Assembly (NCBI GenBank): GCA_002407045.1
Contig: DHKB01000011.1
Span: forward strand, 6,906 to 70,905
Direction: 5' to 3'
DNA length: 64,000 bases
From: Candidatus Bruticola papionis
GTDB lineage: Bacteria; Vulcanimicrobiota; Xenobia; Xenobiales; Xenobiaceae
Shown: piece after piece, positions 4,466 to 58,420 of the stretch
How the letters are laid out: each line of letters opens with the position of its first letter
Numbering within the stretch: position 1 is the stretch's first letter
The notes under the pieces: model-generated
Told to the model about the DNA's origin: nothing
Database searches by the model: none
Seen by the model: the letters and a program-made list of their open reading frames with translations, nothing else
Made by a program: the position numbers and the translations under genes

Positions 4466-4510
4466 AAAATCTCACGCTCCAAACTAAGCTTTTTAGCAAA
4501 TGGCCTGTTA

Positions 4511-6346: not shown

Positions 6347-6493
6347 GCCGAAAAGCTTTCACAAAAAAAGACAGATTCCCCCCAATAGTCAATTGGTTGC
6401 TAAAGCTCCAAAACTTTTCCACCAGAAACGATTGTACTGCCTAAGAACTAACATTCAAGGATATGCCCAATTGCGCTGGAAAGATAGTGGCAA

Positions 6494-7939: not shown

Positions 7940-7989
7940 TTATTAGCGAAAATTCACTTTTTGCATAGAAGTGTACGTCTCCAGATAAT

Positions 7990-8027
7990 AAAAAAAGAAG
8001 CCTTCCCTAAGGAAAGCTTCTTTTTTT
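7990..8027. terminator. Bidirectional terminator between convergent genes
   Basis: GAAGCCTTCC (7997-8006) pairs with GGAAAGCTTC (8011-8020) with one mismatch. It is flanked by A- and T-runs. Confidence 0.7.
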
Positions 8028-8086
8028 AGCTTCAGCTATTCTACACAACTAGCCAACAGCAGCTGAATAGAAAGAGCACGAAGAGC

Positions 8087-44257: not shown

Positions 44258-45199
44258 TTAAATGTTTTCTAAACACTCCTTTATTTTAAGGCCTATAGCT
44301 TGGGCGACTGGTGGTGGAAATGCATTACCTATCATGCGGCAAGCGGCCGTTTTTTTATGGCCGAAAGTCCAGGTATCGGGAAAACCTTGCAGCCGAGCCA
44401 TCATGCGACTAGTTAAGCGCGGCATACCCTCAAAATCGGGTTCAGGCGCATTGTTAGCTATACCCAATCCATCCACTCCCAATTCTGCCCAAGCTTTGCG
44501 GGAACGTACTGGCCCCAGATCCGGTCCTCCATGTTTTTTTGATCCACCAACTAAAGTTGGAGCCACTTTATCAGCCTTTTTTGCCCAAGCTTTGGCTCCA
44601 TTCCAGCCACGCTCAGCCATTAAATCTACTAAACAATTGCCTACAGTTTGCGCTTGACTTCTGTCGCCATTAGGATAAGAAAAACATCCTTGCTCACCTT
44701 CAGCTATACCTACAATAACTACCCTGGGCCTAAGTTGCGGGACTCCAAAATCAGAAGCATTTAATAATTTTATTTGTACATCGTAACCTAAATTTTCAAT
44801 AGAATCCAAAATATAATGGCGATATTCAGTAAAGCCACTTTCCAAAAAGCCTTTAACATTTTCCAGCATAACAGCCCTAGGCTTCATTTCCCTAATTAAA
44901 CGAATAGCCTCAGGAAAAAGGTCGCGCTCGTCATTTTGTCCCAATTGCTTGCCAGCTACGGAAAATGGTGGACAAGGTACTCCACCAGCCAAAAGATCCA
45001 CCCCTTGAAAACCGCAACCACTGAAATGGCGAACATCTTCACATATTACATTCCATTCCGGACGGTTTTTCTTTAAAACTTGGCAATATTCACTTTCATA
45101 TTCCACTAAAGCAATGTGAAAAAAACCTGCCAAAGCCAATCCCAAGGCCTGTCCGCCAGCTCCGGCGCAAATTTCTACACAAGTTAAAGGCTTTAGCAA
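44258..45199 (-). CDS. dcm: DNA (cytosine-5)-methyltransferase with no adjacent restriction gene
   Basis: C5-MTase motifs are in order: I EICAGAGG, IV GGVPCPPFS, VI MLENVKGF, VIII QLRPRVV, X GNAFPPPV. TTG start. Confidence 0.88.
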   Translation of the reverse strand: MLKPLTCVEICAGAGGQALGLALAGFFHIALVEYESEYCQVLKKNRPEWNVICEDVRHFSGCGFQGVDLLAGGVPCPPFSVAGKQLGQNDERDLFPEAIRLIREMKPRAVMLENVKGFLESGFTEYRHYILDSIENLGYDVQIKLLNASDFGVPQLRPRVVIVGIAEGEQGCFSYPNGDRSQAQTVGNCLVDLMAERGWNGAKAWAKKADKVAPTLVGGSKKHGGPDLGPVRSRKAWAELGVDGLGIANNAPEPDFEGMPRLTSRMMARLQGFPDTWTFGHKKTAACRMIGNAFPPPVAQAIGLKIKECLENI

Positions 45200-45317: not shown

Positions 45318-45394
45318 TGGTGGACGAGAACGGACTCGAACCGCCGACCCCCTGCTTGTAAGGCAGGTGCTCTAACCAACTGAGCTACTCGTCC
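45318..45394 (-). tRNA. tRNA-Val (anticodon TAC), CCA encoded
   Basis: Hand-folded cloverleaf: acceptor GGACGAG/CTCGTCC, D arm GCTC/GAGC, anticodon arm CCTGC-CTTACAA-GCAGG, T loop TTCGAGT. Length 77 nt. Confidence 0.9.
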
Positions 45395-45487
45395 AAAAAA
45401 AAGAGAAGCTTCTCAGTAAACGCTGTTTAACTAAATCAGCCTCTCATTCTATTTAACCGCCTTCCCTATGAAGGACAGTGTTTTAAG

Positions 45488-45564
45488 TGGTAGCCCGGAC
45501 GGGAATCGAACCCGTGATCTCCGGCTTGAAAGGCCAGCGTCCTAAACCGCTAGACCACCGGGCC
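45488..45564 (-). tRNA. tRNA-Glu (anticodon TTC), CCA encoded
   Basis: Hand-folded: acceptor GGCCCGG/CCGGGCT (G1-U72), anticodon arm CTGGC-CTTTCAA-GCCGG, T arm ACGGG-TTCGATT-CCCGT. Length 77 nt. Confidence 0.88.
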
Positions 45565-45596
45565 ATGTACACTTTTTCTGAACACCGAGGGGGTCT

Positions 45597-45672
45597 TGGT
45601 GGGCCCACCTGGATTCGAACCAGGGACCAATTAGTTATGAGCCAACTGCTCTAACCGCTGAGCTATGGGCCC
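45597..45672 (-). tRNA. tRNA with CAT anticodon (elongator Met or lysidine-modified Ile2), CCA encoded
   Basis: Hand-folded: acceptor GGGCCCA/TGGGCCC, anticodon loop CTCATAA, T arm CCTGG-TTCGAAT-CCAGG. It lacks initiator features (no C1-A72, no triple G-C in the anticodon stem). Confidence 0.85.
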
Positions 45673-45823: not shown

Positions 45824-47119
45824 CTAAAAATTAATATAAAGCTGAGCGCTTTGTAGTGCCGACAAATGGTTTTCTAAGCCGAAATAAGTTTCACAAGCGC
45901 GGGAAATTTGTTTAAGCTTATAGCAACGCTTCTGAGCTACAAAAACATAAAAGCGCCATAAACTGCGATGCTTGTCACGTAACACGTTAACTTCCGGCAA
46001 GTGCAAAGAAGCTAGTGAGCGCGGCTCTTCTGGCCCTATCTTTACCAAAACTTCAGCTTCTTTTAATTGCATATTAGCTGAAGGGCAGTAGACAATAAGT
46101 TCTCCGGGCTCAAGTCCAAGCTCAGTAGTAAGTTTTTCTTCAGCTTCTTTGCGCAATTCAGCTTTGTTATGAAAGCGATCTACCAGCTGAGCTTCTTTTT
46201 CATAGCCAATGCGCCTAGTTAAAACGTAAGCGCGTTTATAAATCTTGCGCGAACTGAAAGCTTTTAATACTCTGGCTACTAAAGGATCATCGCCAAAGTG
46301 CCACTCAATATAAGCTAAAAGACGCTCATCACCCAAAGGTAAAATGTCTTTAAGCTTTAAGCCAAGCTCTAGAGCGCGTTCTACAATTCTGGAAATCATA
46401 GCCCCAGAAGCAGTCTTGGTATGATGAAAGAAAACGCGTTCAGTCAAAAAGTAGCGTAAACGCAATAAGTTAATAACTTCGGAAACTAGATCTTCTCTAA
46501 CTACGCCATTTTTCTGGCAGTCTAGATATAAATGGCTGCCATCGGTACGTAAGCTGCGTATAATGCGTTTGTCATATTTTTGCGAAAGGCCGCAAAAGAA
46601 AGCGTCGCGAGCCAAATAATCTAAAAGATCGGCACAAAACATGCCGCTAATAAGTTCACTTTGCCAAGCTTTATCAGCTTGGCCGCAGAGAATATTTTTT
46701 ACAGGCTCAGCTATATTCAGCTTATGCAATACTTTACCTAATTCGGTGCGCTTATTAAAAAATAGCTCAAAACGCTCCGGTGAATCGTGGCGACTGAAAA
46801 TACGCCGCTCGTCTTCTACAGTATGGCCAAAGGGAATATGGCCTATATCATGCAAAAGAGCAGCCGCACCCACAGCCAGCTTTTCGGAACCGCTTATCTT
46901 GGTACCAAACTCTTCCAAAATTTTTAAAAGAGTAAGGGCAAGATGACAAGTACCTAAGCTATGCTCAAAGCGAGTGTGAACTGCTCCAGGATAAACAAGA
47001 GAAGCTGTACCTAATTGCTTTATGCCTCGAAGCCTTTGCATTTGGGCTGTATCTATAAGCTCAATTAGCTCATCAGGCAGAAAAATATCTTCGTGTACAG
47101 GATCTCTAAATATTTTCAA
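45824..47119 (-). CDS. SAMHD1-like HD-domain dNTP triphosphohydrolase
   Basis: KIFRDPVHEDIFL...IDTAQMQRLRGIKQLG...HTRFEHSLGT...LLHDIGHIPFGH closely mirrors the SAMHD1/EF1143-type dNTPase N-terminus and HD motif. The TTG start lies 3 nt after the stop of the upstream acidic gene. Confidence 0.8.
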   Translation of the reverse strand: MKIFRDPVHEDIFLPDELIELIDTAQMQRLRGIKQLGTASLVYPGAVHTRFEHSLGTCHLALTLLKILEEFGTKISGSEKLAVGAAALLHDIGHIPFGHTVEDERRIFSRHDSPERFELFFNKRTELGKVLHKLNIAEPVKNILCGQADKAWQSELISGMFCADLLDYLARDAFFCGLSQKYDKRIIRSLRTDGSHLYLDCQKNGVVREDLVSEVINLLRLRYFLTERVFFHHTKTASGAMISRIVERALELGLKLKDILPLGDERLLAYIEWHFGDDPLVARVLKAFSSRKIYKRAYVLTRRIGYEKEAQLVDRFHNKAELRKEAEEKLTTELGLEPGELIVYCPSANMQLKEAEVLVKIGPEEPRSLASLHLPEVNVLRDKHRSLWRFYVFVAQKRCYKLKQISRACETYFGLENHLSALQSAQLYINF

Positions 47120-47122
47120 AGC

Positions 47123-47602
47123 TTATTCTTCGTCTTCTCCGTCATCTTCTTCGCTGAGTTCACCAGAATAGACGGACACTTCACGGATCATGCAATCTAA
47201 CTGGGCCGCACTAAGCTGGCTGACTGGACAAGCAGCTTGTAAGATAACATATTCACAACCGTCGCCCTTGCTAATCATTAAGCGGCTATAAATAAGATTC
47301 TGGTCGCAGAAGCGCAATAATTCAGCAGGATCCAAATCTTCAGTGTATTCGCCAATTTCGGCTTCCACTACTACAGCTTCAGCTTCATGGTACATAGCGT
47401 CGTCGATATCGACCATGAAAACGTCTACTTCAGGCTGATCATCCTGATAAACGCGGAAAACATTTTCTTCCGGAATCCATTCGGCTTCCATGTGCTCATC
47501 ATGATACTTAGCGTAGACAATGAGCTCATCCATTAAATTATTAAGATATTCTGGGGCCTCTAAAGACTCTTCTTCAGGATTTACAGCTTCAGGATCGGTC
47601 AT
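47123..47602 (-). CDS. Highly acidic 159-aa protein (YbjN/secretion-chaperone-like or DNA-mimic-like; function unknown)
   Basis: ATG at 47600-47602 with an AGGAG RBS. By my count it has about 45 Asp/Glu against 6 Lys/Arg and ends in EEDDGEDEE. It appears translationally coupled to the HD gene. Confidence 0.7.
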   Translation of the reverse strand: MTDPEAVNPEEESLEAPEYLNNLMDELIVYAKYHDEHMEAEWIPEENVFRVYQDDQPEVDVFMVDIDDAMYHEAEAVVVEAEIGEYTEDLDPAELLRFCDQNLIYSRLMISKGDGCEYVILQAACPVSQLSAAQLDCMIREVSVYSGELSEEDDGEDEE

Positions 47603-47719: not shown

Positions 47720-47764
47720 AGAAAAAGGCTGCTGCCGAGAAATAAGATAACTCGGCAACAGCCT
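47720..47764 (-). terminator. Terminator of nuclease paralog 1
   Basis: AGGCTGCTGCCGAG (47726-47739) pairs with CTCGGCAACAGCCT (47751-47764) with one mismatch, followed on the minus strand by TTTTTCTGTT. Confidence 0.75.
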
Positions 47765-47821
47765 TCCATAAGCTATAAAGTTTCGATCCGCTGCGGCAGC
47801 AACAAACCGAAACTTAATTGC

Positions 47822-48901
47822 TTACTTGTCGAGACCCTGAGGGGCGAAGTCGTTTTCAGCAGTCAAACGTACCGCTTCTTTGGTAATATCGCCGATATTG
47901 CCAAAGTGTAAGTCGGTCATTTGTTCAAGCTGCTTCTGAGGAACCTGATAAACGCTGAATTTATCGGGATCGAAGCCGGAAATGCCTAAAGTGTGATCTC
48001 TTTCAATAATGTCTTTCTGAGAAAGTACAAAGGAAGCGCTCTTTAAGTTGCCGGTTTTCTCGTCAGCCCAAACTACAGTTTTGAAGAACTGCATAGGAAT
48101 CTGCACGGGCTTCTTCATGGCTCCGTTATTGGTGAACTCAGGATCGTCTTTAGAGAAGATGGGGCCGGTGATTACGGTCATCTTCTGGCTACCGCCAGTG
48201 GCGCTGTCAAGGACATGGTTTTCCAAGTTTAACCATTCTTTTTGGTTTAAACCGGCATGCTGCAAGGTAGCGTTGCAATAGCTAAAAGTATCGTTATTAG
48301 CTTGCTTGGCATCTTTACCCCAGCAAGGATCTAAGCGGCGCACCATGTGGCCCTTATCGATATCATTGTTCCTGTAAGCTTCGTTACCCAACTGACATTC
48401 GCGGGGGATACGACCATCAAGTTGCCATTTGCCACTGCGGGGCAAGTCTTGGTGAGTAGCACCATCGATATTAGAAATGGTATAGAAGCACTGTTTGCGC
48501 TCACCATTCATAACGATGGAGAAGTGAGTATAGGGTAAAACATACTCGCCAGGCTTGTCGGTACGCATAGCCACTTTGTCTTTAATGGAACTGCCCAACT
48601 CGGGAAGAGGAAGCTCTTTGCCTAAGAAAGAGCTGTCATAACCGGCGCGATTGCGATACATGTTGACGCCGTCGCCTTGGACAGTGATGGGGCCCTCAGC
48701 CTTTTGAGCTTGAGCACTGGCGTGGCTCTTGAAAAGTCTGCCGGCGCTGGCAAAGGCTTGCTCGTTAGCGAAGTCTCTGTTGTCGTCATGGACGAACACA
48801 TCCTTACTGCTTCCTTGGAAGCCTTCGGGACGGCTGACAGAATTTTCAATCATCTGAGGATTGTTAAATAACGAGCTGCTAGAGATACTGTTAATTCCCA
48901 T
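47822..48901 (-). CDS. DNA/RNA non-specific endonuclease (Endonuclease NS / Serratia NucA family), paralog 1, no signal peptide
   Basis: DKGHMVRRLDPCWG (DRGH-type catalytic His) and NATLQHAGLNQKEWLNLEN (metal-binding Asn block). I set the start at MGINSIS (ATG 48899-48901, GGAG 9 nt upstream) by homology with the other paralogs. The track ORF extends to 49018. Confidence 0.85.
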   Translation of the reverse strand: MGINSISSSSLFNNPQMIENSVSRPEGFQGSSKDVFVHDDNRDFANEQAFASAGRLFKSHASAQAQKAEGPITVQGDGVNMYRNRAGYDSSFLGKELPLPELGSSIKDKVAMRTDKPGEYVLPYTHFSIVMNGERKQCFYTISNIDGATHQDLPRSGKWQLDGRIPRECQLGNEAYRNNDIDKGHMVRRLDPCWGKDAKQANNDTFSYCNATLQHAGLNQKEWLNLENHVLDSATGGSQKMTVITGPIFSKDDPEFTNNGAMKKPVQIPMQFFKTVVWADEKTGNLKSASFVLSQKDIIERDHTLGISGFDPDKFSVYQVPQKQLEQMTDLHFGNIGDITKEAVRLTAENDFAPQGLDK

Positions 48902-49213
48902 TTTTATCTGCTCCATTACCGAAGCCTGCTTCGCCTTAAAGCAGGCTAAATTCCTGATTATAAATGTCTTACATAGACAAAATATCTTCAGGCGTGACAT
49001 GCTCCTTAAGCTCAGCAAAATTTGCTTAACTTAAGGCTTCTGAGATATTGACGAACCGCGCCTCCAAAACTTGAAAGCACAAGCTCTCTCTTAGTAGGTG
49101 ATGTCCCACCTACATGCTGCTCAGCTTCGGCACTCCACTGTATGTAACTATACAAAGAAACACGCCGAGGCCAAGTAACATTTTACATAATCCCTCCCTC
49201 CCCTTTCTCCTAG

Positions 49214-49256
49214 ATATTAGCAGTCAATTAGGCAAAAATATTCCTTTTTTGTGAAC
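49214..49256 (-). promoter_or_regulatory. Degenerate copy of the conserved upstream element, about 310 nt upstream of paralog 1
   Basis: ATATTAGCAGTCAATTAGGCAAAAATATTCCTTTTTTGTGAAC aligns with the elements at 51732, 53042 and 54474. Confidence 0.35.
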
Positions 49257-49271
49257 TTTTAGTTAACGTAT

Positions 49272-49315
49272 AAAAAAAATGAGCCGTCTGCTGCAAAATA
49301 TTTTTACAGCGCGGC
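49272..49315 (-). terminator. Terminator of nuclease paralog 2
   Basis: GCCGTCTGCTG (49283-49293) pairs with CAGCGCGGC (49307-49315) with a 2-nt bulge, followed on the minus strand by a T8 run. Confidence 0.6.
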
Positions 49316-49355
49316 CCAACTATATTTACCTAATATCTAGCCGAAATTGAGCATT

Positions 49356-50447
49356 TTAGCTGAGTTTAGGAGCGTAATTGTTGTCAGCGCTTAAGCACAT
49401 AGCGGTTGTGGTAATATCGCCGATATTGCCAAAGTGCAAATCGGTAAGGCGCTCGACTTCTTTCTGCGGCACTTGGTAAATTTTAAATTCACCGGGATCG
49501 AAGCCTTTGCCCTTATTCTTCTTAGCTTTAAAAAGAGAACCGTCGTTATTGATAATATCTTCCTGTGAGAGAATAAAGGAAGCACTCTTTAAAGTACCTT
49601 TTTCATTCCAAACTACAGTTTTGAAGAACTTCAAGGGAATTTGGGTAGCTTCTTTCATAGTCCCCTTGTTATCGAACTTAGGATCATCATCAGCGAAAAT
49701 AGGGCCAGTAATTACAGTCATTTTTTGACCGGAACCGCGAGCAGAATTTAAAACGTGATCTTCCAAACGCAGCCACTCTTTTTTATTGAGGCCGCCATGC
49801 TGTAAAGCAGAGTTGCAATAGCTGAAAGTATCTTCACTAGCCAATTTGGCATTTTGGCCCCAACATGGATCTAAGCGGCGCACCATATGGCCACGATCTA
49901 TGCCATTGCTATTATAAGCTTCATCGCCAAGCTGATATTGGCGAGGAATACGACCATCTAAAGTCCAGGCACCTTCACGTTTTACGCTGCGAGAAGCTCT
50001 GCCATCAATATTGCAAATGGCATAGAAGCATTGCTTGCGCTCTTTATTCATTACTACTGAATAGTTGGTGTAAGTAAGCTCACACTCACCGGGTTTGTCA
50101 GTGCGCATGGCTACTTTATTTTGAATAGAAGAGCCTAAGCCGGGCAAAGGAAGTTCTACGCCCAAGAAGGACTTGTCGTAACCATTACGCCCTTCAAACA
50201 TGCTAACCGGCTCACCTTGCACAGAAACCAAAGAAGAAGCCGAATTGGTTTGTTGAGCTTCGCGGCCGCAGCTCTGGAAAAGACGACCGGCCTTAGCGAA
50301 CTCTTGCTCTTTAGCAAATTGAGCGCTTTCGTCACGAACGAAAACATCCTTACCTGTACCCTGAAAACCTTCAGGACGGCTGATGCTATTCTCAGAAACC
50401 TGAGTGTTAATATACAAAGAATTGCCGGAAATGCTACCTATTCCCAC
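49356..50447 (-). CDS. DNA/RNA non-specific endonuclease, paralog 2
   Basis: DRGHMVRRLDPCWG and NSALQHGGLNKKEWLRLED. The homologous start is GTG at 50445-50447 (GGAG-N9-GTG, as in the other paralogs). An in-frame ATG at 50462 is also possible. Confidence 0.85.
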   Translation of the reverse strand: MGIGSISGNSLYINTQVSENSISRPEGFQGTGKDVFVRDESAQFAKEQEFAKAGRLFQSCGREAQQTNSASSLVSVQGEPVSMFEGRNGYDKSFLGVELPLPGLGSSIQNKVAMRTDKPGECELTYTNYSVVMNKERKQCFYAICNIDGRASRSVKREGAWTLDGRIPRQYQLGDEAYNSNGIDRGHMVRRLDPCWGQNAKLASEDTFSYCNSALQHGGLNKKEWLRLEDHVLNSARGSGQKMTVITGPIFADDDPKFDNKGTMKEATQIPLKFFKTVVWNEKGTLKSASFILSQEDIINNDGSLFKAKKNKGKGFDPGEFKIYQVPQKEVERLTDLHFGNIGDITTTAMCLSADNNYAPKLS

Positions 50448-50513
50448 TGAAAATGGCTCCATAATCGTTCTCCCCTCCCTTTAATATTTATTACAAAAAA
50501 AGTCTCCACTTTT

Positions 50514-50547
50514 AGAAAAAGCTGCTCGACTCACAAAATCGAGCAGC
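50514..50547 (-). terminator. Terminator of nuclease paralog 3
   Basis: GCTGCTCGA (50521-50529) pairs perfectly with TCGAGCAGC (50539-50547), followed on the minus strand by TTTTTCT. Confidence 0.8.
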
Positions 50548-50571
50548 TTTCTACTTAGCTAAGACAAAATG

Positions 50572-51681
50572 CTAGCTTAACTTAGGAGCGTAATCGTTCT
50601 CAGCGGTCAAGCGCATAGGCTTTTCGGTGATGTCACCAATATTGCCAAAGTGCAAATCGGTCATTTGCTCGAGCTGCTTCTGAGGCACCTGGTATACGCT
50701 GAAGCGGCCAGGATCGACGCCCTTGCTCTTGAAGAGGGAGCGATCTTTATTGATGATGTCTTCCTGGGAAAGTACGAAAGAGGCGCTCTTGAGCTTACCG
50801 CCATCGTTCCAGACCACAGTCTTGAAGAACTTCATAGGGATCTGGGTAGCTTCTTTCATTCTGCCCTTGTTGTCAAACTTAGGATCGTTCTCAGAGAAGA
50901 TCGGGCCAGTAATTACGGTAAGCTTCTGTTTCTCTTTACCAGTAGTGGCGCTGTCCAAAACGTGGTTCTCTAAGCAGAGCCATTCTTTCTGGTTCAAACC
51001 ACCGTGTTGCAAGGTGGCATTGCAATAGCTGAAAGTATCACGGCTGGCGCGTAAAGGATCGTCGCCCCAGCAAGGATCTAAGCGGCGCACCATGTGGCCC
51101 TTATCGATATTGTTGCCGCCATAAGCTTCGTTGCCCAACTGATATTCACGAGGGATACGACCGTCGATAGTCCAGTTGCCATCACGCTTTACTTTTTGGT
51201 GGCTGTTGCCGTCGATATTGCAAATAGCGTAGAAACACTGTTTGCGCTCTTTATTCATTACTACGGAGTAGTTGGTATAAGTGAGCTCGCTCTTACCAGG
51301 CTCATCGGTACGCATAGCCACTTTATCTTTAATAGAATCGCCCAAACCAGGCAAAGGAAGCTCTACGCCTAAGAAAGACTTGTCGTAGCCATTGCGGCCT
51401 TCAAACATGTTGACGCTCTCGATATCGACGCCGGAAGCGGCAGACATGATGTTGGTTTGCTGAGTCTCTTCAGGATTGGCTTGAGGCTGAGCCTCGCGCT
51501 GACAGCTTTGGAAAAGGCGACCGGCCTTAGCAAAATCCTGCTCTTTGACAAACTGAGCGTTATCATCGTGTACAAATACGTCTTTGCCAGTACCCTGGAA
51601 ACCTTCAGGACGACGAATAGAGCTCTCAGAGATTTGAGTGTTAGTATATAAAGAACTACCAGAAATACTTCCGATACCCAT
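50572..51681 (-). CDS. DNA/RNA non-specific endonuclease, paralog 3
   Basis: DKGHMVRRLDPCWG and NATLQHGGLNQKEWLCLEN. ATG at 51679-51681 (MGIGSIS). The track begins at a TTG 9 nt upstream. Confidence 0.88.
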   Translation of the reverse strand: MGIGSISGSSLYTNTQISESSIRRPEGFQGTGKDVFVHDDNAQFVKEQDFAKAGRLFQSCQREAQPQANPEETQQTNIMSAASGVDIESVNMFEGRNGYDKSFLGVELPLPGLGDSIKDKVAMRTDEPGKSELTYTNYSVVMNKERKQCFYAICNIDGNSHQKVKRDGNWTIDGRIPREYQLGNEAYGGNNIDKGHMVRRLDPCWGDDPLRASRDTFSYCNATLQHGGLNQKEWLCLENHVLDSATTGKEKQKLTVITGPIFSENDPKFDNKGRMKEATQIPMKFFKTVVWNDGGKLKSASFVLSQEDIINKDRSLFKSKGVDPGRFSVYQVPQKQLEQMTDLHFGNIGDITEKPMRLTAENDYAPKLS

Positions 51682-51731
51682 TGTGAACAACCCCTAGTTT
51701 TCTCCCCACCCCAGACCTTGTTTACCAGTAA

Positions 51732-51776
51732 ATACTACAGAATTTAAAATAGTATTTGTGCACAAAATTGTAACAA
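51732..51776 (-). promoter_or_regulatory. Conserved ~45-nt upstream element (putative promoter) of paralog 3
   Basis: Minus strand: TTGTTACAATTTTGTGCACAAATACTATTTTAAATTCTGTAGTAT. The TTGTTACA and TAGTAT boxes are shared with the elements at 53042, 54474 and 55714. Confidence 0.45.
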
Positions 51777-51843
51777 GCTAGTCAAATTTCCATTTAAAAC
51801 AGTATTTTTCAAGGTTGACGCTTCTACTTAAGTACTAATTTAT

Positions 51844-51885
51844 AAAAAAAGCGCCTTGCTCTTATTCATTTGAGAGCAAAAACGC
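51844..51885 (-). terminator. Terminator of nuclease paralog 4
   Basis: TTGCTCT (51856-51862) pairs with AGAGCAA (51873-51879) plus outer GCG/CGC pairs, followed on the minus strand by a T7 run. Confidence 0.7.
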
Positions 51886-51908
51886 TTTTCCTCTAGACAC
51901 TCAATAAG

Positions 51909-52991
51909 CTACTTATCTAAGCCCACAGGAGCATAATTATTTTCTGCAGTCAGACGCACGGCTTTTTTGCAAGTATCGCCTATATTGCCAAAATGCAAAT
52001 CGGTAAGACGCTCGACCTCTTTTTGAGGTACTTGATAGACCTCGAAGCGATCGGGCTCGAAGCCGCCCTTAAGCTTAATAGTGTCATCTCCCTTAATAAT
52101 ATCTTCTTGGGACAAGATGAAAGAAGCGCTCTTTAAATTGCCAGTTTTTTCGTCAGCCCAAACGACGGTTTTAAAGAATTTCATAGGAATCTGGGCCGGT
52201 TCTTTCATTTTGCCATTGTTATCAAACCAAGGATCGTTCTCGGAGAAGATAGGGCCAGTAATCACACTCATCTTCTGACCGTTAGCAGAATTAAGCACAT
52301 GATCTTCTAAAGCGAGCCATTCGTCTTGGTTTAAACCGCCATGTTGTAAAGAAGCGTTGCAATAGCTGAAAGTGTCGCGGCTAGCTAATTCGGCATTACT
52401 ACCCCAGCAAGGGTCTAAACGGCGTACCATGTGACCTTTGTCGATATTGTTACGCTTGTAAGCTTCGTCGCCCAACTGGTATTCACGAGGAATACGTCCA
52501 TCTAAAGTCCAGTTGCCGGAACGCTTGACGGCGCGCTGGCTGTTGCCGTCAATATTGCAAATAGCGTAGAAGCACTGCTTGCGATCTTTATTCATTACTA
52601 CAGAGTAGTTGGTGTAAGTAAGCTCACATTCGCCAGGCTTATCGGTACGCATGGCCACTTTGTCTTTAATAGAAGCGCCTAATTGAGGTAAAGGAAGCTC
52701 GGTACCTAAGAAGTTTTTGTCATAGCCATTGCGGCCGTTGAACATGCTGACTTTGTCACCTTGAATTGTAACTACGCCAGAAGTGGAATCGGCTTGTTGA
52801 GATTCGCGATTTACACTTTGGAAAAGACGACCAGCTTTAGCAAAATCCTGGTCTTTAACAAACTGAGCATTGTCATCATGTACAAATACATCTTTGCCAG
52901 TGCCCTGGAAACCTTCAGGGCGGCTGATAGAACTCTCGGGAACTTGATTATTTATATATAAAGAGTTGCCAGAAATACTTCCGATACCCAC
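51909..52991 (-). CDS. DNA/RNA non-specific endonuclease, paralog 4
   Basis: DKGHMVRRLDPCWG and NASLQHGGLNQDEWLALED. GTG start (GGAG-N9-GTG). Confidence 0.88.
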   Translation of the reverse strand: MGIGSISGNSLYINNQVPESSISRPEGFQGTGKDVFVHDDNAQFVKDQDFAKAGRLFQSVNRESQQADSTSGVVTIQGDKVSMFNGRNGYDKNFLGTELPLPQLGASIKDKVAMRTDKPGECELTYTNYSVVMNKDRKQCFYAICNIDGNSQRAVKRSGNWTLDGRIPREYQLGDEAYKRNNIDKGHMVRRLDPCWGSNAELASRDTFSYCNASLQHGGLNQDEWLALEDHVLNSANGQKMSVITGPIFSENDPWFDNNGKMKEPAQIPMKFFKTVVWADEKTGNLKSASFILSQEDIIKGDDTIKLKGGFEPDRFEVYQVPQKEVERLTDLHFGNIGDTCKKAVRLTAENNYAPVGLDK

Positions 52992-53041
52992 AGTAGACTA
53001 CTCCGTTTTTCTCCCCACCCCAAAACAATCTAACTCAATAG

Positions 53042-53086
53042 ATACTACACAATTTAAATGGCTGGTTAGGCACAAAAATGTAACAA
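53042..53086 (-). promoter_or_regulatory. Conserved upstream element of paralog 4
   Basis: Minus strand: TTGTTACATTTTTGTGCCTAACCAGCCATTTAAATTGTGTAGTAT. Confidence 0.45.
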
Positions 53087-53100
53087 AATTGACCGAAAAG

Positions 53101-53143
53101 AAAATAAAAGCGCTCCGGCCCACAAATTAAAAGCCGAAGCGCT
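53101..53143 (-). terminator. Terminator of nuclease paralog 5
   Basis: AGCGCTCCGGC (53109-53119) pairs with GCCGAAGCGCT (53133-53143) with one mismatch, followed on the minus strand by TTTTATTTT. Confidence 0.75.
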
Positions 53144-53190
53144 TTTTAAGTGTATCAGTTGCTATGCAACTTCACACTAAACAAGAATTA

Positions 53191-54324
53191 TTAGGACAAC
53201 TTGGGAGCGTAATCGTTCTCAGCGGTCAGACGCATAGGCTGCTCGGTGATGTCGCCAATATTACCAAAGTGGAGGTCGGTAAGACGCTCTACTTCTTTCT
53301 GAGGCACCTGGTAAACTTCGAAGCGATCGGGATCGAAGCCACCTTTAGCGCCCAAGGAACCGTCGCCATCGATAATGTCTTCCTGAGAAAGGATGAAGGA
53401 AGCGCTCTTGAGCTCTTTGCCTTCGGTCCAGACCACGGTCTTGAAGAATTTCATAGGAATCTGGGCCGGCTCCTTCATCTTGCCATGGTTATCGAAGGAA
53501 GGATCATCTTTGGAGAAGATGGGGCCGGTAATGACGGTCATCTTCTGACCTTTGGCAGAATTGAGAACGTGATCCTCAAGCTGGAGCCACTCTTTCTGGT
53601 TCAAGCCAGCGTGCTGCAAGGAAGAGTTGCAATAGCTAAAGGTGTCGTGACTAGCCAAGTCGGCGTTTTTGCCCCAACAAGGATCTAAGCGGCGAACCAT
53701 ATGACCTCTGTCGATACTGTTATCGACATAGGCTTCGTTGCCGAGCTGATATTCACGAGGAATACGACCATCTAAGGTCCAGCTGCCGGAACGTTTTACA
53801 GCGCGGTGAGTAGTACCATCGATATTGCAAATGGCATAGAAGCACTGCTTGCGCTCTTTGTTCATTACTACGGAGTAGTTGGTGTAAGTAAGCTCACACT
53901 CACCGGGCTTGTCGGTACGCATGGCCACTTTGTCTTTAATGGAGCTACCGAGCTGAGGTAAAGGAAGTTCGGTACCCAAGAAGGCTTTGTCGTAGCCATT
54001 GCGGCCTTCGAACATGCTTACACCGTCGGGCTTAACTTCACGGGGACCTTTAGGACCACGAGGGCCTCTGGGGCCGTTGGGACCTTGAGCACCGTCATTT
54101 CTGCGGCGGTTCTTTCTCCTGGTGATTTCGAAACTGTTGTCGTTTACGCTCTGGAAGAGGCGGCCAGCTTTAGCAAACTGCTGCTCTTTGGTGAGCTGAG
54201 CGTCGTCGTCATGGACGAATACGTCTTTGCCAGTGCCCTGGAAACCTTCAGGACGTTTGATAGAGCTCTCAGAAACCTGAGTGTTAGTATATAAAGAATT
54301 ACCAGAAATGCTTCCGATACCCAT
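53191..54324 (-). CDS. DNA/RNA non-specific endonuclease, paralog 5, with an Arg-rich and Gly-Pro-X linker insertion
   Basis: DRGHMVRRLDPCWG and NSSLQHAGLNQKEWLQLED. ATG at 54322-54324. Confidence 0.9.
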   Translation of the reverse strand: MGIGSISGNSLYTNTQVSESSIKRPEGFQGTGKDVFVHDDDAQLTKEQQFAKAGRLFQSVNDNSFEITRRKNRRRNDGAQGPNGPRGPRGPKGPREVKPDGVSMFEGRNGYDKAFLGTELPLPQLGSSIKDKVAMRTDKPGECELTYTNYSVVMNKERKQCFYAICNIDGTTHRAVKRSGSWTLDGRIPREYQLGNEAYVDNSIDRGHMVRRLDPCWGKNADLASHDTFSYCNSSLQHAGLNQKEWLQLEDHVLNSAKGQKMTVITGPIFSKDDPSFDNHGKMKEPAQIPMKFFKTVVWTEGKELKSASFILSQEDIIDGDGSLGAKGGFDPDRFEVYQVPQKEVERLTDLHFGNIGDITEQPMRLTAENDYAPKLS

Positions 54325-54473
54325 GTTTTACAATTCCTATCCCTTTAACTAGGCTTTGCAGAAAACTTTAGCAGTTACAAAAACTGACAAAATTTTCAAC
54401 GAATCGAGACAAGCCAGCTCTTATCCAAAATGCAGACAACAGATACGCTTGCTCAAAGACATTAACTAAACTG

Positions 54474-54518
54474 ATACTACAGAATTTAAAAGTCTAATTA
54501 GGCAAAAAATTGTTACAA
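54474..54518 (-). promoter_or_regulatory. Conserved upstream element of paralog 5 (leader about 150 nt)
   Basis: Minus strand: TTGTAACAATTTTTTGCCTAATTAGACTTTTAAATTCTGTAGTAT. Confidence 0.45.
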
Positions 54519-54537
54519 CTTAGCCAAAAAACTTTTT

Positions 54538-54579
54538 AAAAATAAAATGCGCTTCAAAACCAAAGCCTTTGAAGCGCAT
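54538..54579 (-). terminator. Terminator of nuclease paralog 6
   Basis: ATGCGCTTCAAA (54547-54558) pairs perfectly with TTTGAAGCGCAT (54568-54579), followed on the minus strand by TTTTATTTTT. Confidence 0.8.
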
Positions 54580-54611
54580 TCAACTCGCTATTTTATGTAT
54601 AAAAAGCTAAT

Positions 54612-55667
54612 TTATTTTAACTTGGGAGCGTAGTCGTTCTCAGCGGTCAAGCGCATAGGCTTCTCGGTAATGTCGCCGATATTGCCAAAGTGCAAGTCGG
54701 TGAGACGCTCGACTTCCTTCTGAGGCACCTGGTAAACTTCGAAGCGATCGGGATCGAAGCCGCCCTTAATACCCAAGGAACTATCGTTGTTGATGATATC
54801 TTCTTGAGAGAGGATGAAGGAAGCACTCTTGAGCTCTTTGCCATCATTCCAGACTACGGTCTTGAAGAATTTCATGGGGATCTGAGTAGGCTCATCCATC
54901 AAACCGTTGTTGTCGAACTTCGGATCGTCTTTGGAGAAGATGGGGCCGGTAATAACGGTCATTTTTTGGCCTTTAGCAGAACCGAGCACGTGGTCTTCAA
55001 GTTTGAGCCATTCTTTCTGGTTCAAGCCACCATGTTGCAAAGCGGCGTTGCAATAAGTGAAAGTGTCACGGCTGGCCAATTCGGGATCCTTACCCCAGCA
55101 AGGATCTAAACGGCGCACCATATGGCCCTTGTCAATATCGTTATCTTTGTAGGCTTCGTTGCCCAGCTGATACTCGCGAGGGATACGTCCATCGATAGAC
55201 CAGCTGCCGGAGCGTCTGACATTGCGATGGCTAGTGCCGTCAATATTGCAAATAGCGTAGAAGCACTGCTTGCGCTCTTTGTTCATAACGACAGAGAAGT
55301 TGGTATAGGTGAGTTCGCTCTCACCAGGCTTGTCAGTGCGCATAGCGACTTTGTCTTTAATGGAAGAACCGAGCTTAGGCAAAGGAAGTTCGGTGCCCAA
55401 GAATTTTTCGTCGTAACCATTGCGACCTTCGTACATGTTGACGCCTTCGATTTCGATTTCGGAAGCGGCGTTGACATGGCCAGCCTGAGTGCTCTGGAAG
55501 AGACGACCGGCTTTAGCGAATTGCTGTTCTTTGGTAAACTGAGAGCTTTCGTCGCGAACGAAGACATCTTTGCTAGTGCCTTGGAAACCTTCGGGACGCT
55601 TGACGTCGCTCTGCTGGATATTATTAAAGGCAGTAAAAGAACTGCTGGATATGCTACCTAAACCCAT
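54612..55667 (-). CDS. DNA/RNA non-specific endonuclease, paralog 6
   Basis: DKGHMVRRLDPCWG and NAALQHGGLNQKEWLKLED. ATG at 55665-55667. Confidence 0.9.
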   Translation of the reverse strand: MGLGSISSSSFTAFNNIQQSDVKRPEGFQGTSKDVFVRDESSQFTKEQQFAKAGRLFQSTQAGHVNAASEIEIEGVNMYEGRNGYDEKFLGTELPLPKLGSSIKDKVAMRTDKPGESELTYTNFSVVMNKERKQCFYAICNIDGTSHRNVRRSGSWSIDGRIPREYQLGNEAYKDNDIDKGHMVRRLDPCWGKDPELASRDTFTYCNAALQHGGLNQKEWLKLEDHVLGSAKGQKMTVITGPIFSKDDPKFDNNGLMDEPTQIPMKFFKTVVWNDGKELKSASFILSQEDIINNDSSLGIKGGFDPDRFEVYQVPQKEVERLTDLHFGNIGDITEKPMRLTAENDYAPKLK

Positions 55668-55713
55668 TTAGTTAAACCAACCTAGTTTTAGACATATTTC
55701 CCCCTTGCAGCTA

Positions 55714-55769
55714 TACTACACAATAAAAAGTATTTATTGTACAGAAACTACTTACAAAAATGTTAACAT
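55714..55769 (-). promoter_or_regulatory. Conserved upstream element of paralog 6 (about 10 nt longer)
   Basis: Minus strand: TGTTAACATTTTTGTAAGTAGTTTCTGTACAATAAATACTTTTTATTGTGTAGTAT. Confidence 0.4.
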
Positions 55770-55801: not shown

Positions 55802-58420
55802 TCAATCGTTATGCCAGCTGGCTTTTTGAGCTGCTGGAGGCGCCTGATCCATTTTGACAGTAGCAGTTTTCTCCAAATTAGCTCTATTTTCTACCGCTGA
55901 ACTGTCCGCACTTTCTGCTTTGTCAGTTCCATTTAATCTATCGCTAAAGGGAGATGGCGAAGCCGCGCTATCAGCTTCTTTGAAAGCATTTTGCTCAGTT
56001 AAGTCGGGAATTTCTATATTTTTTAACTCTTGAGTATCTTTAGGAGAAACAACTTGCGCATTTGAAGAAGCAACGGGGCTAGGCTCAGGTTCGATGCCAT
56101 CAGAACTAGTAAGCTTATCAGCTCCTTTATTACCAAGACGCTTTGAGTAATAGTAGGAAGTTACCAAAAGAGCTACGCCCAAAACGAAGAAGAGCAGCAA
56201 CTTATAGCCGATAGGCAAATTTACAATGTCATAAGTAATTACTCTAAGCAAAGTAACACAAACGATAAAAATGCCACTGTTGGTGACATAACGATTTTTA
56301 AAGCGAATGCCACCCCAAAGGATAGCGGCCGCATAGAGCATCCACAGAACAGAAGTAATAGAATCTAAATGGCAAACTGCAGCAATGTTATGTCCTTCAA
56401 TATGAACTAAAGACCAGCCACTAAGCACAGCTCCAACTAGATAAATTTCAGATCCGTAAAGTACAAAAGCCGCTGCTAAAGCCAAAATAGTTAAAACGTG
56501 AGCTAAGAAGCCTATATTTACTATAGGAATAAATTCGGCGTAAGCACCTGTAACGCAACTGAGAATATTGATAGTCAAGCCGAATAAAGACAGAGCCAAA
56601 GCCAAATTGAAACCAATGGCAAAGGCGTTGCTTTTGGCCTTTTTGGCTTGAAGCATAGCTTGCAAAGCATAAATGGAGCAAACGGCCACTAAGCTAAAGC
56701 AGCTAAAAGCCCACCACTGCTGGCCATTTAAATTCAACACACGATCCAAAATGTCGGCTAATTCTCGGCCAAAATAAATATAAGCTAAGGTTATACCGGC
56801 CCAAAGGTTAAAATCTCTGTATTTTTCATCACCATTGTAATGTCTGAACATTAAGTAGCTAGATAACCAAGCAACAATAGAAACTCCGAAAATAATTATG
56901 GCCAGCTTATGAAGCTCTCGATCAGGAGTTAAGAAAAAGTCAAATTTGCCATTGAAGTCGGCCACTAACATAATGAAAAAGGCCAATACATTGTGCAGGC
57001 CGCTCCAGAAGAAAAGGCGTCGTTGTACTTCCGGCTTGGCAACTTTATTAAAAGCAATCCAAAGAATAATTAAACCGGCTGCAGAAAGAAAGGCCACCCT
57101 AGTTAGCGGCTCTTGGAAGCTGTAGGCAGAAAGGCCGACCACAAACAGGCCAGCGTTGACAAAAGCTCTGGCTAAAGTATTCATGTTTTCTGCACGCAAT
57201 TTAGCTAAACAGAATAAGGCTGCCGCAGCCACCATAAAAGCGCCAAAAGCCTGGCCTTCGCTGTAAATGCAATTGGCGCCTAAGGCCATCATGAGGTGAT
57301 TTATCCAAACGGAGGGTTGCTTGGTATCGTTTTCGTCTTGGCGGCGGAAATAATCATAAACCAAAACAATAAGCCAGATGGCCCCTAAAGCATAAGGGCT
57401 AAAAATTCGGTCGGCTTTTTCGAAAATGCCGGTACGGGTAGCAATAAAAAGCCAGGTTATAGCTAAATTGATACTAAAAAGCGAATTCCATTTTTGGCAA
57501 CGCACAGTACCGACTAAGCAAAAAAGAGCCAGAATAACTAAATAAACATCAAAAACATAAGTACTGTCGATAGAAGTTTGAATAAAAATTAAGTTGGCGT
57601 AACCAGCCAAAGCTCCCAGACAAATAACGGATCTGCGTTGGGCCCAATAAGCCAGTACATATGTGCCCAGTAAAATGAGCGAAGCTAAAGCCAAACTTAC
57701 GTAGTTGTCCCAAAGGTCAAAGTAAACGCTGCCAGCGTAAGTTATCATAATTGCCGAAGCTAGACCCAAACCTAAGAGAGTTTCGGAAAAGCCGCGCATA
57801 TTATCTTTAGGTAAAAGATAAAAGCCCAAACCAACCAGCACCGAGCTAAAAATGTAAACGGCGCCAACTTTCATAGCTGCAGTTAAAGCCAAAAATGGAG
57901 AGAGCCACTTTATAAAAAGGATGACAAAAACAATAATGGCTAAAGCGCCTAATTTATTAAAAAGGCTTCCTAAAAAGAATTGCTCTAGACTGTTTTCAGC
58001 GACGGCTTGGGAGGCAGCTATTTTGGATTTGGGTGCAGCTGTTTTGGGCGAATCTGGCCAAGCTTTGTGCATAGACGCATTCGCCGACGCTGAACCTGTA
58101 GTGAGCAAACTTGTAACAGTAGTAGGCTCGGCAGGCGATGTTTTTTCTTTAGCTAAGGATAATGCGGCTCTGTGGCTTTCTTCGACCGAATTAGTTACAG
58201 AACTAGTCGTCGCCGGTGCATTACCAAACTTATCTTGATCATCGTTGCCAACTTGGTGAACAGCTACCAGTCTTTCTAGACTAGCTTCAAGCCTCTCTAC
58301 ACGTTTTTTTAAGCTTTGGCAAGAGGCCATAGCTACAACAGAAAAGATAAATGGCAGGAAAAACATTCCTAAAGCCATGAGAACTAACACAATAAATTCC
58401 AACTCTGCGCCCTTCCCCAA
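55802..58420 (-). CDS. Large polytopic membrane protein, DUF2339-like
   Basis: 872 aa. Layout is an N-terminal TM, a short coiled coil (KKRVERLEASLERLVAV), a Ser/Thr/Ala linker, more than 20 hydrophobic segments, and an acidic Ser-rich C-terminal tail. The family name is tentative. Confidence 0.7.
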   Translation of the reverse strand: MGKGAELEFIVLVLMALGMFFLPFIFSVVAMASCQSLKKRVERLEASLERLVAVHQVGNDDQDKFGNAPATTSSVTNSVEESHRAALSLAKEKTSPAEPTTVTSLLTTGSASANASMHKAWPDSPKTAAPKSKIAASQAVAENSLEQFFLGSLFNKLGALAIIVFVILFIKWLSPFLALTAAMKVGAVYIFSSVLVGLGFYLLPKDNMRGFSETLLGLGLASAIMITYAGSVYFDLWDNYVSLALASLILLGTYVLAYWAQRRSVICLGALAGYANLIFIQTSIDSTYVFDVYLVILALFCLVGTVRCQKWNSLFSINLAITWLFIATRTGIFEKADRIFSPYALGAIWLIVLVYDYFRRQDENDTKQPSVWINHLMMALGANCIYSEGQAFGAFMVAAAALFCLAKLRAENMNTLARAFVNAGLFVVGLSAYSFQEPLTRVAFLSAAGLIILWIAFNKVAKPEVQRRLFFWSGLHNVLAFFIMLVADFNGKFDFFLTPDRELHKLAIIIFGVSIVAWLSSYLMFRHYNGDEKYRDFNLWAGITLAYIYFGRELADILDRVLNLNGQQWWAFSCFSLVAVCSIYALQAMLQAKKAKSNAFAIGFNLALALSLFGLTINILSCVTGAYAEFIPIVNIGFLAHVLTILALAAAFVLYGSEIYLVGAVLSGWSLVHIEGHNIAAVCHLDSITSVLWMLYAAAILWGGIRFKNRYVTNSGIFIVCVTLLRVITYDIVNLPIGYKLLLFFVLGVALLVTSYYYSKRLGNKGADKLTSSDGIEPEPSPVASSNAQVVSPKDTQELKNIEIPDLTEQNAFKEADSAASPSPFSDRLNGTDKAESADSSAVENRANLEKTATVKMDQAPPAAQKASWHND

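Follow-up and report, generated by a model that had tools for sequence, protein, structure and literature searches.

Non-specific nucleases are lethal if they are active beside the genome of the cell that makes them. To our knowledge, every characterised member of the family considered here is kept from its producer's DNA by export, by sequestration or by an inhibitor (Serratia NucA, Anabaena NucA with NuiA, EndoG). Here we describe six tandem nuclease genes in a 64,000-nucleotide stretch (the window) of contig DHKB01000011.1 from Candidatus Bruticola papionis. The array proteins share with the NucA enzymes of Serratia marcescens and Anabaena the PF01223 family, a predicted ββα-Me fold, the general-base His of the DRGH motif and the metal-binding Asn and Glu. 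However, the NucA enzymes are encoded by single genes and have cleavable Sec leaders, and Anabaena has the inhibitor NuiA, whereas the array comprises six leaderless paralogs with no inhibitor gene detected nearby and with an extra N-terminal module of ~60 amino acids (the N-module) followed by a linker. It is this combination that is unusual: a conserved array of six insulated and apparently highly expressed genes, no leader, no detected inhibitor or immunity partner, and a conserved N-module restricted to the family. The enzyme itself is ordinary; the central question is how a leaderless non-specific nuclease is exported or kept harmless. We favour, with a probability of roughly 0.4, Sec-independent export of digestive or attack nucleases, in which the N-module would be the handle and the flagellum's type III secretion system (T3SS) the most plausible route.

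The best sequence and structure matches are EndoG and EXOG (including the Drosophila EndoG–EndoGI pair), which, like the array proteins, have a non-Sec N-terminal extension before the core. A profile of 68 members searched against the PDB matched EndoG (9e-15) more closely than Serratia nuclease (6e-9) or Anabaena NucA (2e-8), and also matched EXOG. In EndoG the extension serves as a basic mitochondrial presequence and is removed during import, whereas the N-module is neutral to acidic, conserved and bacterial, and no EndoGI-like two-domain inhibitor was seen with the array. Polymorphic toxins, namely those of the type VI secretion system, LXG proteins of the type VII secretion system (T7SS) such as YxiD, and contact-dependent inhibition and Rhs toxins, include nucleases of the same His-Me group and are likewise leaderless, with a non-catalytic N-terminal region and multiple copies (PMC5714182). 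The array differs from them in having no adjacent immunity gene, in an N-module that is not found on other toxin domains, and in being core and vertically inherited. Another point of comparison is provided by the non-flagellar proteins that the flagellar T3SS exports through N-terminal signals in Campylobacter (Cia, Fed, FlaC) and Yersinia (YplA), leaderless substrates of flagellated gut bacteria (PMC2764114, PMC5223770). By comparison, export is only proposed for the array, no flagellar regulon promoter is recognised, and the N-module is unusually conserved in sequence. We know of no nuclease among the non-flagellar proteins exported in this way. Finally, the Trypsin_2–Endonuclease_NS fusions of soil bacteria and Bacillus cereus-group megaplasmids (~600 amino acids) have the same D(R/K)GH(M/L)VRR core from R-x-G-Y-x-x-F-L-G onward and are also leaderless, with a protease domain where the array proteins have their short N-module.

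The array places six conserved, apparently highly expressed copies of a leaderless subfamily in a prevalent uncultured gut lineage, where the usual safeguards are not visible and a unique N-terminal tag is found instead. If the tag is an export signal, it would be a new way to move leaderless proteins out of a diderm cell; if it is a safety catch, it would be a new mode of nuclease self-control. Either answer bears on the gut lifestyle of Xenobia, be it nucleic-acid feeding, clearing of extracellular DNA (eDNA) and mucus, or antagonism of other cells. Were the proteins ordinary enzymes that lysis sets free, the array would hold only local interest.

Six tandem genes for predicted EndoG-type nucleases

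An open reading frame (ORF) scan of the window recovered the array as six consecutive minus-strand ORFs (Table 1), ending exactly where the original prediction had placed them. The proteins are 351–377 amino acids long, slightly more than the 351–372 first claimed, as the gene ending at 53191 encodes 377. They are mutually 64–80% identical (64–70% to the first-aligned copy), with a mean column identity of 76%. All six match Pfam PF01223, Endonuclease_NS, with E-values of 1.4e-36 to 4.7e-43 (126–148 bits; curated cut-off 23 bits). The D(K/R)GH motif reads DKGH in four copies and DRGH in two, so Lys replaces Arg in 4/6, and the block N-x-x-L-Q-H-x-G-L-N-(Q/K)-x-E-W-L-x-L-E is intact in every copy, invariant save at the x and (Q/K) positions. 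In a profile alignment, these active-site segments line up with DRG(H) and N..PQ...LN..W..LE of EndoG. The catalytic residues H187, N212, N221 and E229, numbered on gene 4 (51909..52991 when the ORFs are counted upward from the 47822 end), are invariant in the six copies and 68 homologs, as expected from the earlier claim that they were intact.

An AlphaFold2 (AF2) model of the gene-4 product has a mean predicted local distance difference test score (pLDDT) of 84, with a high-confidence core at residues ~80–345 (core pLDDT >90), a disordered stretch at residues 1–38 and a helix at residues 40–64 (pLDDT about 76–78). In Foldseek the model was matched best by EXOG, EndoG, CPS-6 and Serratia nuclease, at probability 1.0 and with TM-scores up to 0.71 normalised to the target. 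Sequence, profile and fold thus agree on the family, and the predicted ββα-Me site bears out the proposed membership. On these grounds we class the array proteins as EndoG-type ββα-Me nucleases, predicted to be non-specific for DNA/RNA. The family is already known and membership in it is solid; public annotation calls the homologs 'DNA/RNA non-specific endonuclease', and NCBIfam gave no match for the nuclease.

The spacers within the array measure 109–454 nucleotides. In line with the original prediction, the window scan found no ORF of at least 60 amino acids, the size of an immunity protein, wholly between array genes; the largest are 54 and 57 amino acids. Inside the 454-nucleotide spacer (48902–49355), a strong, vestigial-looking Shine-Dalgarno sequence (GGAGAAAGGGGAGGGAGGGA) at 49183–49210 on the minus strand is followed by ATG and then directly by TAA; this start-like site resembles the translation start of the neighbouring paralog and could be what is left of a lost copy, or a very short leader ORF. 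Long antisense ORFs (139–179 amino acids) lie within the nuclease genes at 53164–53688, 54690–55109 and 55122–55661 on the plus strand. Because the sense frame is under strong purifying selection, these are most likely shadow ORFs arising from codon bias.

A conserved N-terminal module confined to the nuclease family

The ~60-residue N-module stands at the start of each of the six proteins, as it does in homologs of as little as about 50% identity, and is followed by a variable low-complexity linker of roughly 20–50 residues. The module has four parts: an extreme N-terminus GI(G/N)SIS(G/S)xSLY (MINGISS in another clade), the motif R-P-E-G-F-Q-G, the motif K-D-V-F-V-(R/H)-D, and a helix carrying F-x-x-x-G-x-x-F. 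Across clades about 50% identical, it is conserved as strongly as the catalytic domain; more distant single-domain relatives retain only D-(V/T)-F and the F-x-x-x-G-x-x-F helix. Neither the module nor the acidic gene immediately downstream of the array figured in the original prediction.

When we searched 5.8e9 clustered proteins with a profile of the N-module, we found nothing beyond one 72-amino-acid fragment of the same nuclease family. A hidden Markov model searched exhaustively against 1.84e9 representatives returned this nuclease family and spurious repeats only (WW-domain and β-propeller repeat proteins). With no other cargo in either set, we rejected the notion, borrowed from polymorphic-toxin logic, that the module is a generic trafficking domain. 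Eukaryotic N-myristoylation of the MG start was also rejected on inspection, as position 6 is Ile and other clades begin MIN. Residues ~12–30 (for example 52902–52958, minus strand), which read SLYxNxQxxESxxxRPEGFQG, recall the C-terminal half of WW domains (WBP4: YYYNTETGASQWEKPEGFQG; E 0.045 against the PDB). Because the first half of the WW domain is absent, this is probably a chance or short-motif match.

No recognisable export leader in the array or its subfamily

Hydropathy, motif and ORF-boundary checks found no Sec, Tat or lipoprotein leader on the array proteins. Within their first 60 amino acids, the maximum 10-residue Kyte–Doolittle (KD) hydropathy is 0.57–1.25, compared to 2.1–3.2 in the Sec and lipoprotein controls of the window. 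There is no lipobox or RR (twin-arginine) motif in the six N-termini and no transmembrane-like segment anywhere in the six proteins (maximum KD19 0.64). In-frame stops lie 0–6 codons upstream of 5/6 starts, which for these five genes rules out a signal peptide missed by annotation. Other envelope proteins of the window carry normal Sec or lipoprotein signals. The earlier description of the nucleases as leaderless holds, but not as something special to the array: the leader is also missing from ~66 closer homologs and from essentially all of 80 metagenome relatives with the D(R/K)GHMVRR motif. Judged from these homologs, leader absence characterises the D(R/K)GHMVRR subfamily as a whole.

Separate transcription units with signs of high expression

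Every gene of the array is followed by a strong hairpin and U-tract (−18.7 to −54.6 kcal/mol; z −2.0 to −9.3 against shuffles), matching the intrinsic terminator that had been proposed for each; a simple consensus terminator scan detected just one of the six. On the upstream side, a promoter-like element occurs before three of the genes (Table 1). Its form TGCCTAA..TTTAAATTnTGTAGTAT has two exact matches in the window, with 0 expected, and its core is conserved upstream of array genes in L001–L005 and L017–L027 only (loci compared with the window are given as L numbers). On inspection, neither a σ28 nor a σ54 assignment of the element fitted convincingly, and the spacers gave no Rfam match to a structured RNA. 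Read from these flanking signals, each copy is its own transcription unit.

The codon adaptation index (CAI), with EF-G, TIM, PGK and GAPDH of the same window as reference, is 0.69–0.81 for the nucleases and 0.42–0.60 for most window genes. An S8 protease elsewhere in the window has the top value apart from the reference gene GAPDH (0.83). The nuclease genes also carry strong Shine-Dalgarno sequences. Together with the private promoters and terminators, these features make it likely that all six copies are highly expressed.

Six old genes, individually maintained

Close homologs are annotated as Candidatus Bruticola sp. and bacterium UBP9_UBA11836 (class Xenobia, Vulcanimicrobiota/Eremiobacterota); the public taxonomic labels of near-identical contigs conflict, naming Candidatus Riflebacteria, uncultured bacterium, Candidatus Bruticola and Candidatus Eremiobacteraeota, and it is from the names Bruticola and UBP9 that we assign the lineage to Xenobia. 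Five related metagenome-assembled genomes (MAGs) have the same six genes in the same order. Copy number is four in each of two Ca. Bruticola MAGs and two in each of a more distant pair (goat rumen, BRZ_DV). In a tree, each array position forms a separate orthologous group, Bruticola has members in four of the six, and the paralogs show no trace of gene conversion. Position-1 orthologs in L001–L005 are 93–98% identical (ratio of non-synonymous to synonymous substitution rates, dN/dS, 0.03), and the identical position-1 protein occurs on at least 23 gut-metagenome contigs. Position 2, whose linker is basic and collagen-like (RRKNRRRN...GPNGPRGPRGPKGP), also has orthologs at 87% identity in the Ca. 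Bruticola loci L006/L007. Position-4 orthologs are 98–99% identical in L001–L005 and 88–90% identical in Bruticola (dN/dS 0.01–0.05). The position-6 protein, whose longest ORF is 398 amino acids, clusters with L008_2 and L009_1.

Overall, ortholog dN/dS is 0.01–0.07 at dS 0.3–2, and synonymous sites between paralogs are saturated. Together with the separate orthologous groups, this indicates six old, individually maintained genes, neither recent nor decaying, in agreement with the claims that these are not failing duplicates and that selection keeps the multiplicity. Sites that are fixed within groups and differ between them cluster in the surface loops 151–162, 198–205, 255–266, 279–283 and 306–317, and the active site is invariant. 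The old divergence, the loop-clustered substitutions and the lack of gene conversion argue for sub-functionalisation over dosage.

These data bear on another account, in which the array consists of ordinary duplicated housekeeping or scavenging nucleases that are released passively by lysis or in vesicles, the N-module is a structural or dimerisation appendage, and the copies serve gene dosage. Consistent with it, the context is entirely housekeeping, homologs adjoin core genes as single copies in other lineages, the public annotation is unremarkable, and the codon bias suggests that dosage matters. We nevertheless find this account quite improbable, as the ancient divergence and the pattern of substitution favour sub-functionalisation, and as it explains neither how active non-specific nucleases are tolerated before release nor why a disordered N-terminal motif is kept over about 50% core divergence.

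In a separate clade, N-module nucleases of the MINGISS type stand in tandem, 71 nucleotides apart, between groES–groEL and alaS (L015 7692–9982, L016 1420–3710), showing that tandem multiplicity recurs independently in the family. Thus the layout taken at first as distinctive is so in part: the six-gene array is conserved in related MAGs, but tandem copies are not confined to it. A mobile-element origin was rejected, as there was no phage match and the plasmid matches were only to distant trypsin-fusion relatives. As far as gene content and order tell, the array is a lineage-specific, vertically inherited expansion in gut Xenobia, in a core-genome context.

Proposed Sec-independent export, or possible latency

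No inhibitor or immunity gene was found in the array or beside it, and the characterised relatives are all kept apart from their producer's DNA, which together favour removal of the nucleases from the cytoplasm. We propose that the proteins, made without Sec, Tat or lipoprotein leader, would exit by a Sec-independent route that reads the N-module, with its polar, disordered GI(G/N)SIS..SLY start, its D-V/T-F motif and its amphipathic F-x-x-x-G-x-x-F helix as the putative signal. Outside the cell, foreign DNA and RNA would be their targets, broken down to scavenge nucleotides or phosphate or as an attack on other cells or on eDNA matrices, and the paralogs may differ in substrate or partner preferences encoded in their loops.

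One machine that works independently of Sec and recognises disordered N-terminal signals is the flagellar type III apparatus. L109 carries a flagellar cluster at 3634–8536, directly upstream of where the window begins (window position 1 is L109 9236), with genes for a FliA-like sigma factor, an FlgJ-type rod-binding protein (FlgJ-N), FlgG, FlgF, an FlhB-C-like protein of 100 amino acids and an FliK-like protein of 471 amino acids. L109 was linked to the window by an identical copy of the window's PHO4 gene and by the opening 60 bases of the window, which it contains. The organism thus very probably has flagella and with them a flagellar type III export apparatus. As this is the sole Sec-independent export machine reading N-terminal signals for which we found evidence in the organism, we consider it the most plausible route. 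In line with such a route, five of the six nuclease N-termini have the composition described by simple type III secretion (T3S)-type rules, compared to 4 of 37 other ORFs. The gut Xenobia lineage is apparently flagellated, in which it differs from Vulcanimicrobium, the member of its phylum in culture. The phylum's sole cultivated member is diderm (PMC9758169), and in the literature consulted on Xenobia we found nothing on secretion or nucleases.

Several observations weigh against export by this route. The array has no secretion apparatus linked to it, about 50 kb separate it from the flagellar genes, and a flagellar-type promoter was not recognised upstream of the nucleases. The match to T3S rules is of low specificity, and being paralogs the six proteins do not count as independent cases. 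In T3S signals, as opposed to the N-module, the sequence is as a rule not conserved, and the absence of the module from other cargo in either protein set speaks against a general trafficking tag. The reference behind the codon-bias signal comprises four genes, and in the second clade the CAI of the paired nucleases is like that of IF-2 and NusA, a weaker signal. Moreover, many of the 80 metagenome relatives are ~600-amino-acid fusions with an N-terminal trypsin-like domain, and the leaderless subfamily that takes in such trypsin–nuclease fusions spans diderm and monoderm lineages. Leader absence throughout the subfamily makes the array less uniquely odd and keeps an intracellular role in play. 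A distant homolog on the B. cereus C1L plasmid pC1L1 (L108 4089–7086) is a leaderless 599-amino-acid trypsin-like protease–nuclease fusion, and its gene is followed by one for a 321-amino-acid subtilisin of intracellular type whose N-terminus carries a LIPF motif, a hint that members of the subfamily may be cytoplasmic. Similar protease–nuclease genes occur on many B. cereus-group megaplasmids.

The same observations make room for an alternative that we regard as somewhat unlikely, namely that the nucleases are latent, zymogen-like enzymes that stay in the cell. The N-module, through its F-x-x-x-G-x-x-F helix and the acidic D-V-F-V-x-D-D, would fold onto the DNA-binding groove or recruit a partner there. 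Proteolysis, for instance at the conserved E-G-F-Q↓G site, or some other trigger might then release the enzymes for bulk turnover, programmed death or infection-triggered suicide, a sequel that we hold just as tentatively. Latency would suit a subfamily that is leaderless in diderms and monoderms alike, in which many members are fused to a trypsin-like protease and one adjoins an intracellular subtilisin (ISP-type) gene, and would also suit the presence in the window of a leaderless S8 protease with the top non-reference CAI. The N-module is conserved in the manner of a folded or binding element and solely with this nuclease, the pLDDT of its modelled helix suggests possible packing on the core, and no secretion genes are nearby. 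Nevertheless, we know of no characterised DRGH nuclease that is controlled in this way, the known ones being exported or paired with an inhibitor; six highly expressed non-specific nucleases in the cytoplasm would be risky; there is no PADLOC match; and stable core inheritance under strong purifying selection is unlike that of defence genes.

Export and latency could also be combined. The N-module would then be an undescribed, sequence-conserved tag for both Sec-independent export and latency, sending a six-nuclease arsenal out of the cell or into target cells, with the flagellar type III apparatus as a possible route, and keeping the enzymes harmless in the producer so that immunity genes are needless; we consider this proposal rather unlikely. 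An effector arsenal had been suggested at the outset, and found no support in the form of secretion-system, immunity or trafficking-domain evidence within the window or within ±10 kb in relatives. In particular, PAAR, VgrG, LXG and Rhs elements are absent near the array, as are secretion genes.

Table 1. Features of the nuclease array and its surroundings, in window coordinates
Feature	Coordinates	Strand	Details
Nuclease paralog, array position 1	54612..55667	-	351 amino acids; N-module 1-59, linker 60-81, nuclease core after; PF01223 E 1.8e-36
Nuclease paralog, position 2	53191..54324	-	377 amino acids; longest linker of the array
Nuclease paralog, position 3	51909..52991	-	360 amino acids, GTG start; PF01223 E 3.6e-38; copy modelled by AF2
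Nuclease paralog, position 4	50572..51681	-	369 amino acids from ATG, 372 from upstream TTG; most conserved copy
Nuclease paralog, position 5	49356..50462	-	368 amino acids; upstream spacer short, 109 nucleotides
Nuclease paralog, position 6	47822..48901	-	359 amino acids from ATG at 48901 with GGAG Shine-Dalgarno; most divergent
Terminator hairpin + U-tract, position 1	54545..54581	-	15-bp stem; -24.5 kcal/mol, z -4.6
Terminator hairpin + U-tract, position 2	53106..53146	-	-37.9 kcal/mol (91-nucleotide stretch), z -6.7
Terminator hairpin + U-tract, position 3	51845..51891	-	-18.7 kcal/mol, z -2.0; weakest of six
Terminator hairpin + U-tract, position 4	50515..50552	-	-25.5 kcal/mol, z -4.0
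Terminator hairpin + U-tract, position 5	49280..49318	-	-24.7 kcal/mol, z -3.2
Two consecutive strong hairpins, position 6	47723..47821	-	-54.6 kcal/mol, z -9.3; second (47723-47767) then U-tract
Promoter-like element TGCCTAA..TTTAAATTnTGTAGTAT, upstream of position-2 gene	54474..54504	-	motif match, alignment
Promoter-like element TGCCTAA..TTTAAATTnTGTAGTAT, upstream of position-3 gene	53042..53072	-	motif match, alignment
Promoter-like element, variant TGCACAA..TTTAAATTCTGTAGTAT, upstream of position-4 gene	51732..51762	-	alignment
Acidic 159-amino-acid gene	47123..47602	-	isoelectric point (pI) 4.05, 45 Asp/Glu; 4 nucleotides from HD-domain gene; directly downstream of array
HD + HD_assoc_2 (dGTPase-like) gene	45824-47119	-	4-nucleotide gap to acidic gene; appears translationally coupled
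DUF2339 polytopic membrane protein gene	55802-58420	-	directly upstream of array
C5 cytosine DNA methyltransferase gene	44258-45199	-	
tRNA cluster	45318-45672	-	Val-TAC, Glu-TTC, Met-CAT
S8 subtilase gene	25638-26939	+	433 amino acids

Neighbouring genes

The window is otherwise of housekeeping character, with genes for aminoacyl-tRNA synthetases, EF-G, glycolysis, DnaX, RecR, an ABC transporter and an outer-membrane protein. No conserved inhibitor or immunity neighbour recurs beside the nuclease across the loci compared. No window ORF of about 150 amino acids or more has a Pfam match to NuiA, which at ~135 amino acids is itself below the size scanned. A conserved downstream partner in the distant homologs was also sought and rejected, as the 233-amino-acid ORF of L097 and the 237-amino-acid ORF of L099 are mutually unrelated and have no Pfam match.

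The neighbour that most resembles a partner is the acidic gene. The AF2 model of its product (pLDDT 82.5) has the topology α-β-β-β-β-α-β-β-α, and Foldseek matched it to the T3SS class-I chaperones VecA, SycT, ExsC, SycH, CesT, SpcU and SycE and to YbjN. The gene adjoins the array in 9/9 related loci, is 95–98% conserved in Bruticola, and co-occurs with N-module nucleases in the same MAGs. With its pI of 4.05 and with a flagellar T3SS very probably present, the protein could thus belong to a T3SS effector–chaperone system, a special case of Sec-independent export in which residues ~20–65 of the nucleases would be the chaperone-binding domain and the acidic protein a shared class-I chaperone, or else a DNA-mimic inhibitor. 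We judge this highly improbable. The Foldseek E-values are modest (7e-5 to 5e-3), the fold is also that of the non-secretory YbjN family, and the chaperones of flagellar export are all-helical. Injectisome genes were not seen, although no genome-wide search was aimed at the T3SS. Above all, the acidic gene stays with the HD gene: the pair occurs without a nuclease nearby in L014, and in L009 the acidic gene is beside HD431 and is flanked by the two nucleases, one on each side, with DUF2339 separating one of them from it. Conversely, nucleases occur without the acidic gene in L010–L013, L015/16 (the groEL/alaS pairs) and L097–99. As the acidic gene tracks the HD gene and not the nucleases, a dedicated chaperone or immunity role is not supported, and we rejected it: the fold fits, but the comparative context breaks the link. 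The acidic–HD pair is kept across Xenobia-like MAGs, and the acidic family forms 16 clusters in 5.8e9 proteins, all unnamed.

A defence function, also raised in the original prediction, was rejected. In PADLOC-DB, the nuclease, the acidic protein and DUF2339 had no match, and neighbours gave only generic dGTPase and methylase matches; besides the lack of PADLOC or NCBIfam matches, the core-genome context, stable inheritance and high codon adaptation speak against it. DUF2339 was considered as a linked membrane partner and set aside, as it adjoins the array in L001–L009 and is absent beside the nucleases in L015/16 and L010–13. It evolves fast, with 71–91% identity where its neighbours have 93–99%, and 46% in Bruticola; in L014 it is absent, as are the nucleases.

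The S8 subtilase lacks a signal peptide and has a polar N-terminus with many S, T, P and Q residues. At residue 33 it has 'EETFV', which recalls the 'KDVFV' of the nucleases, and its best NCBIfam match is a T7SS mycosin, below threshold. The C5 methyltransferase gene is intact in L001/L002, internally deleted or truncated in L003–L005 and absent from L006–L009, and the genes that flank it are 86–99% conserved in L001–L007 and 62–72% conserved in L008/L009. Between the methyltransferase and HD genes lies the tRNA cluster.

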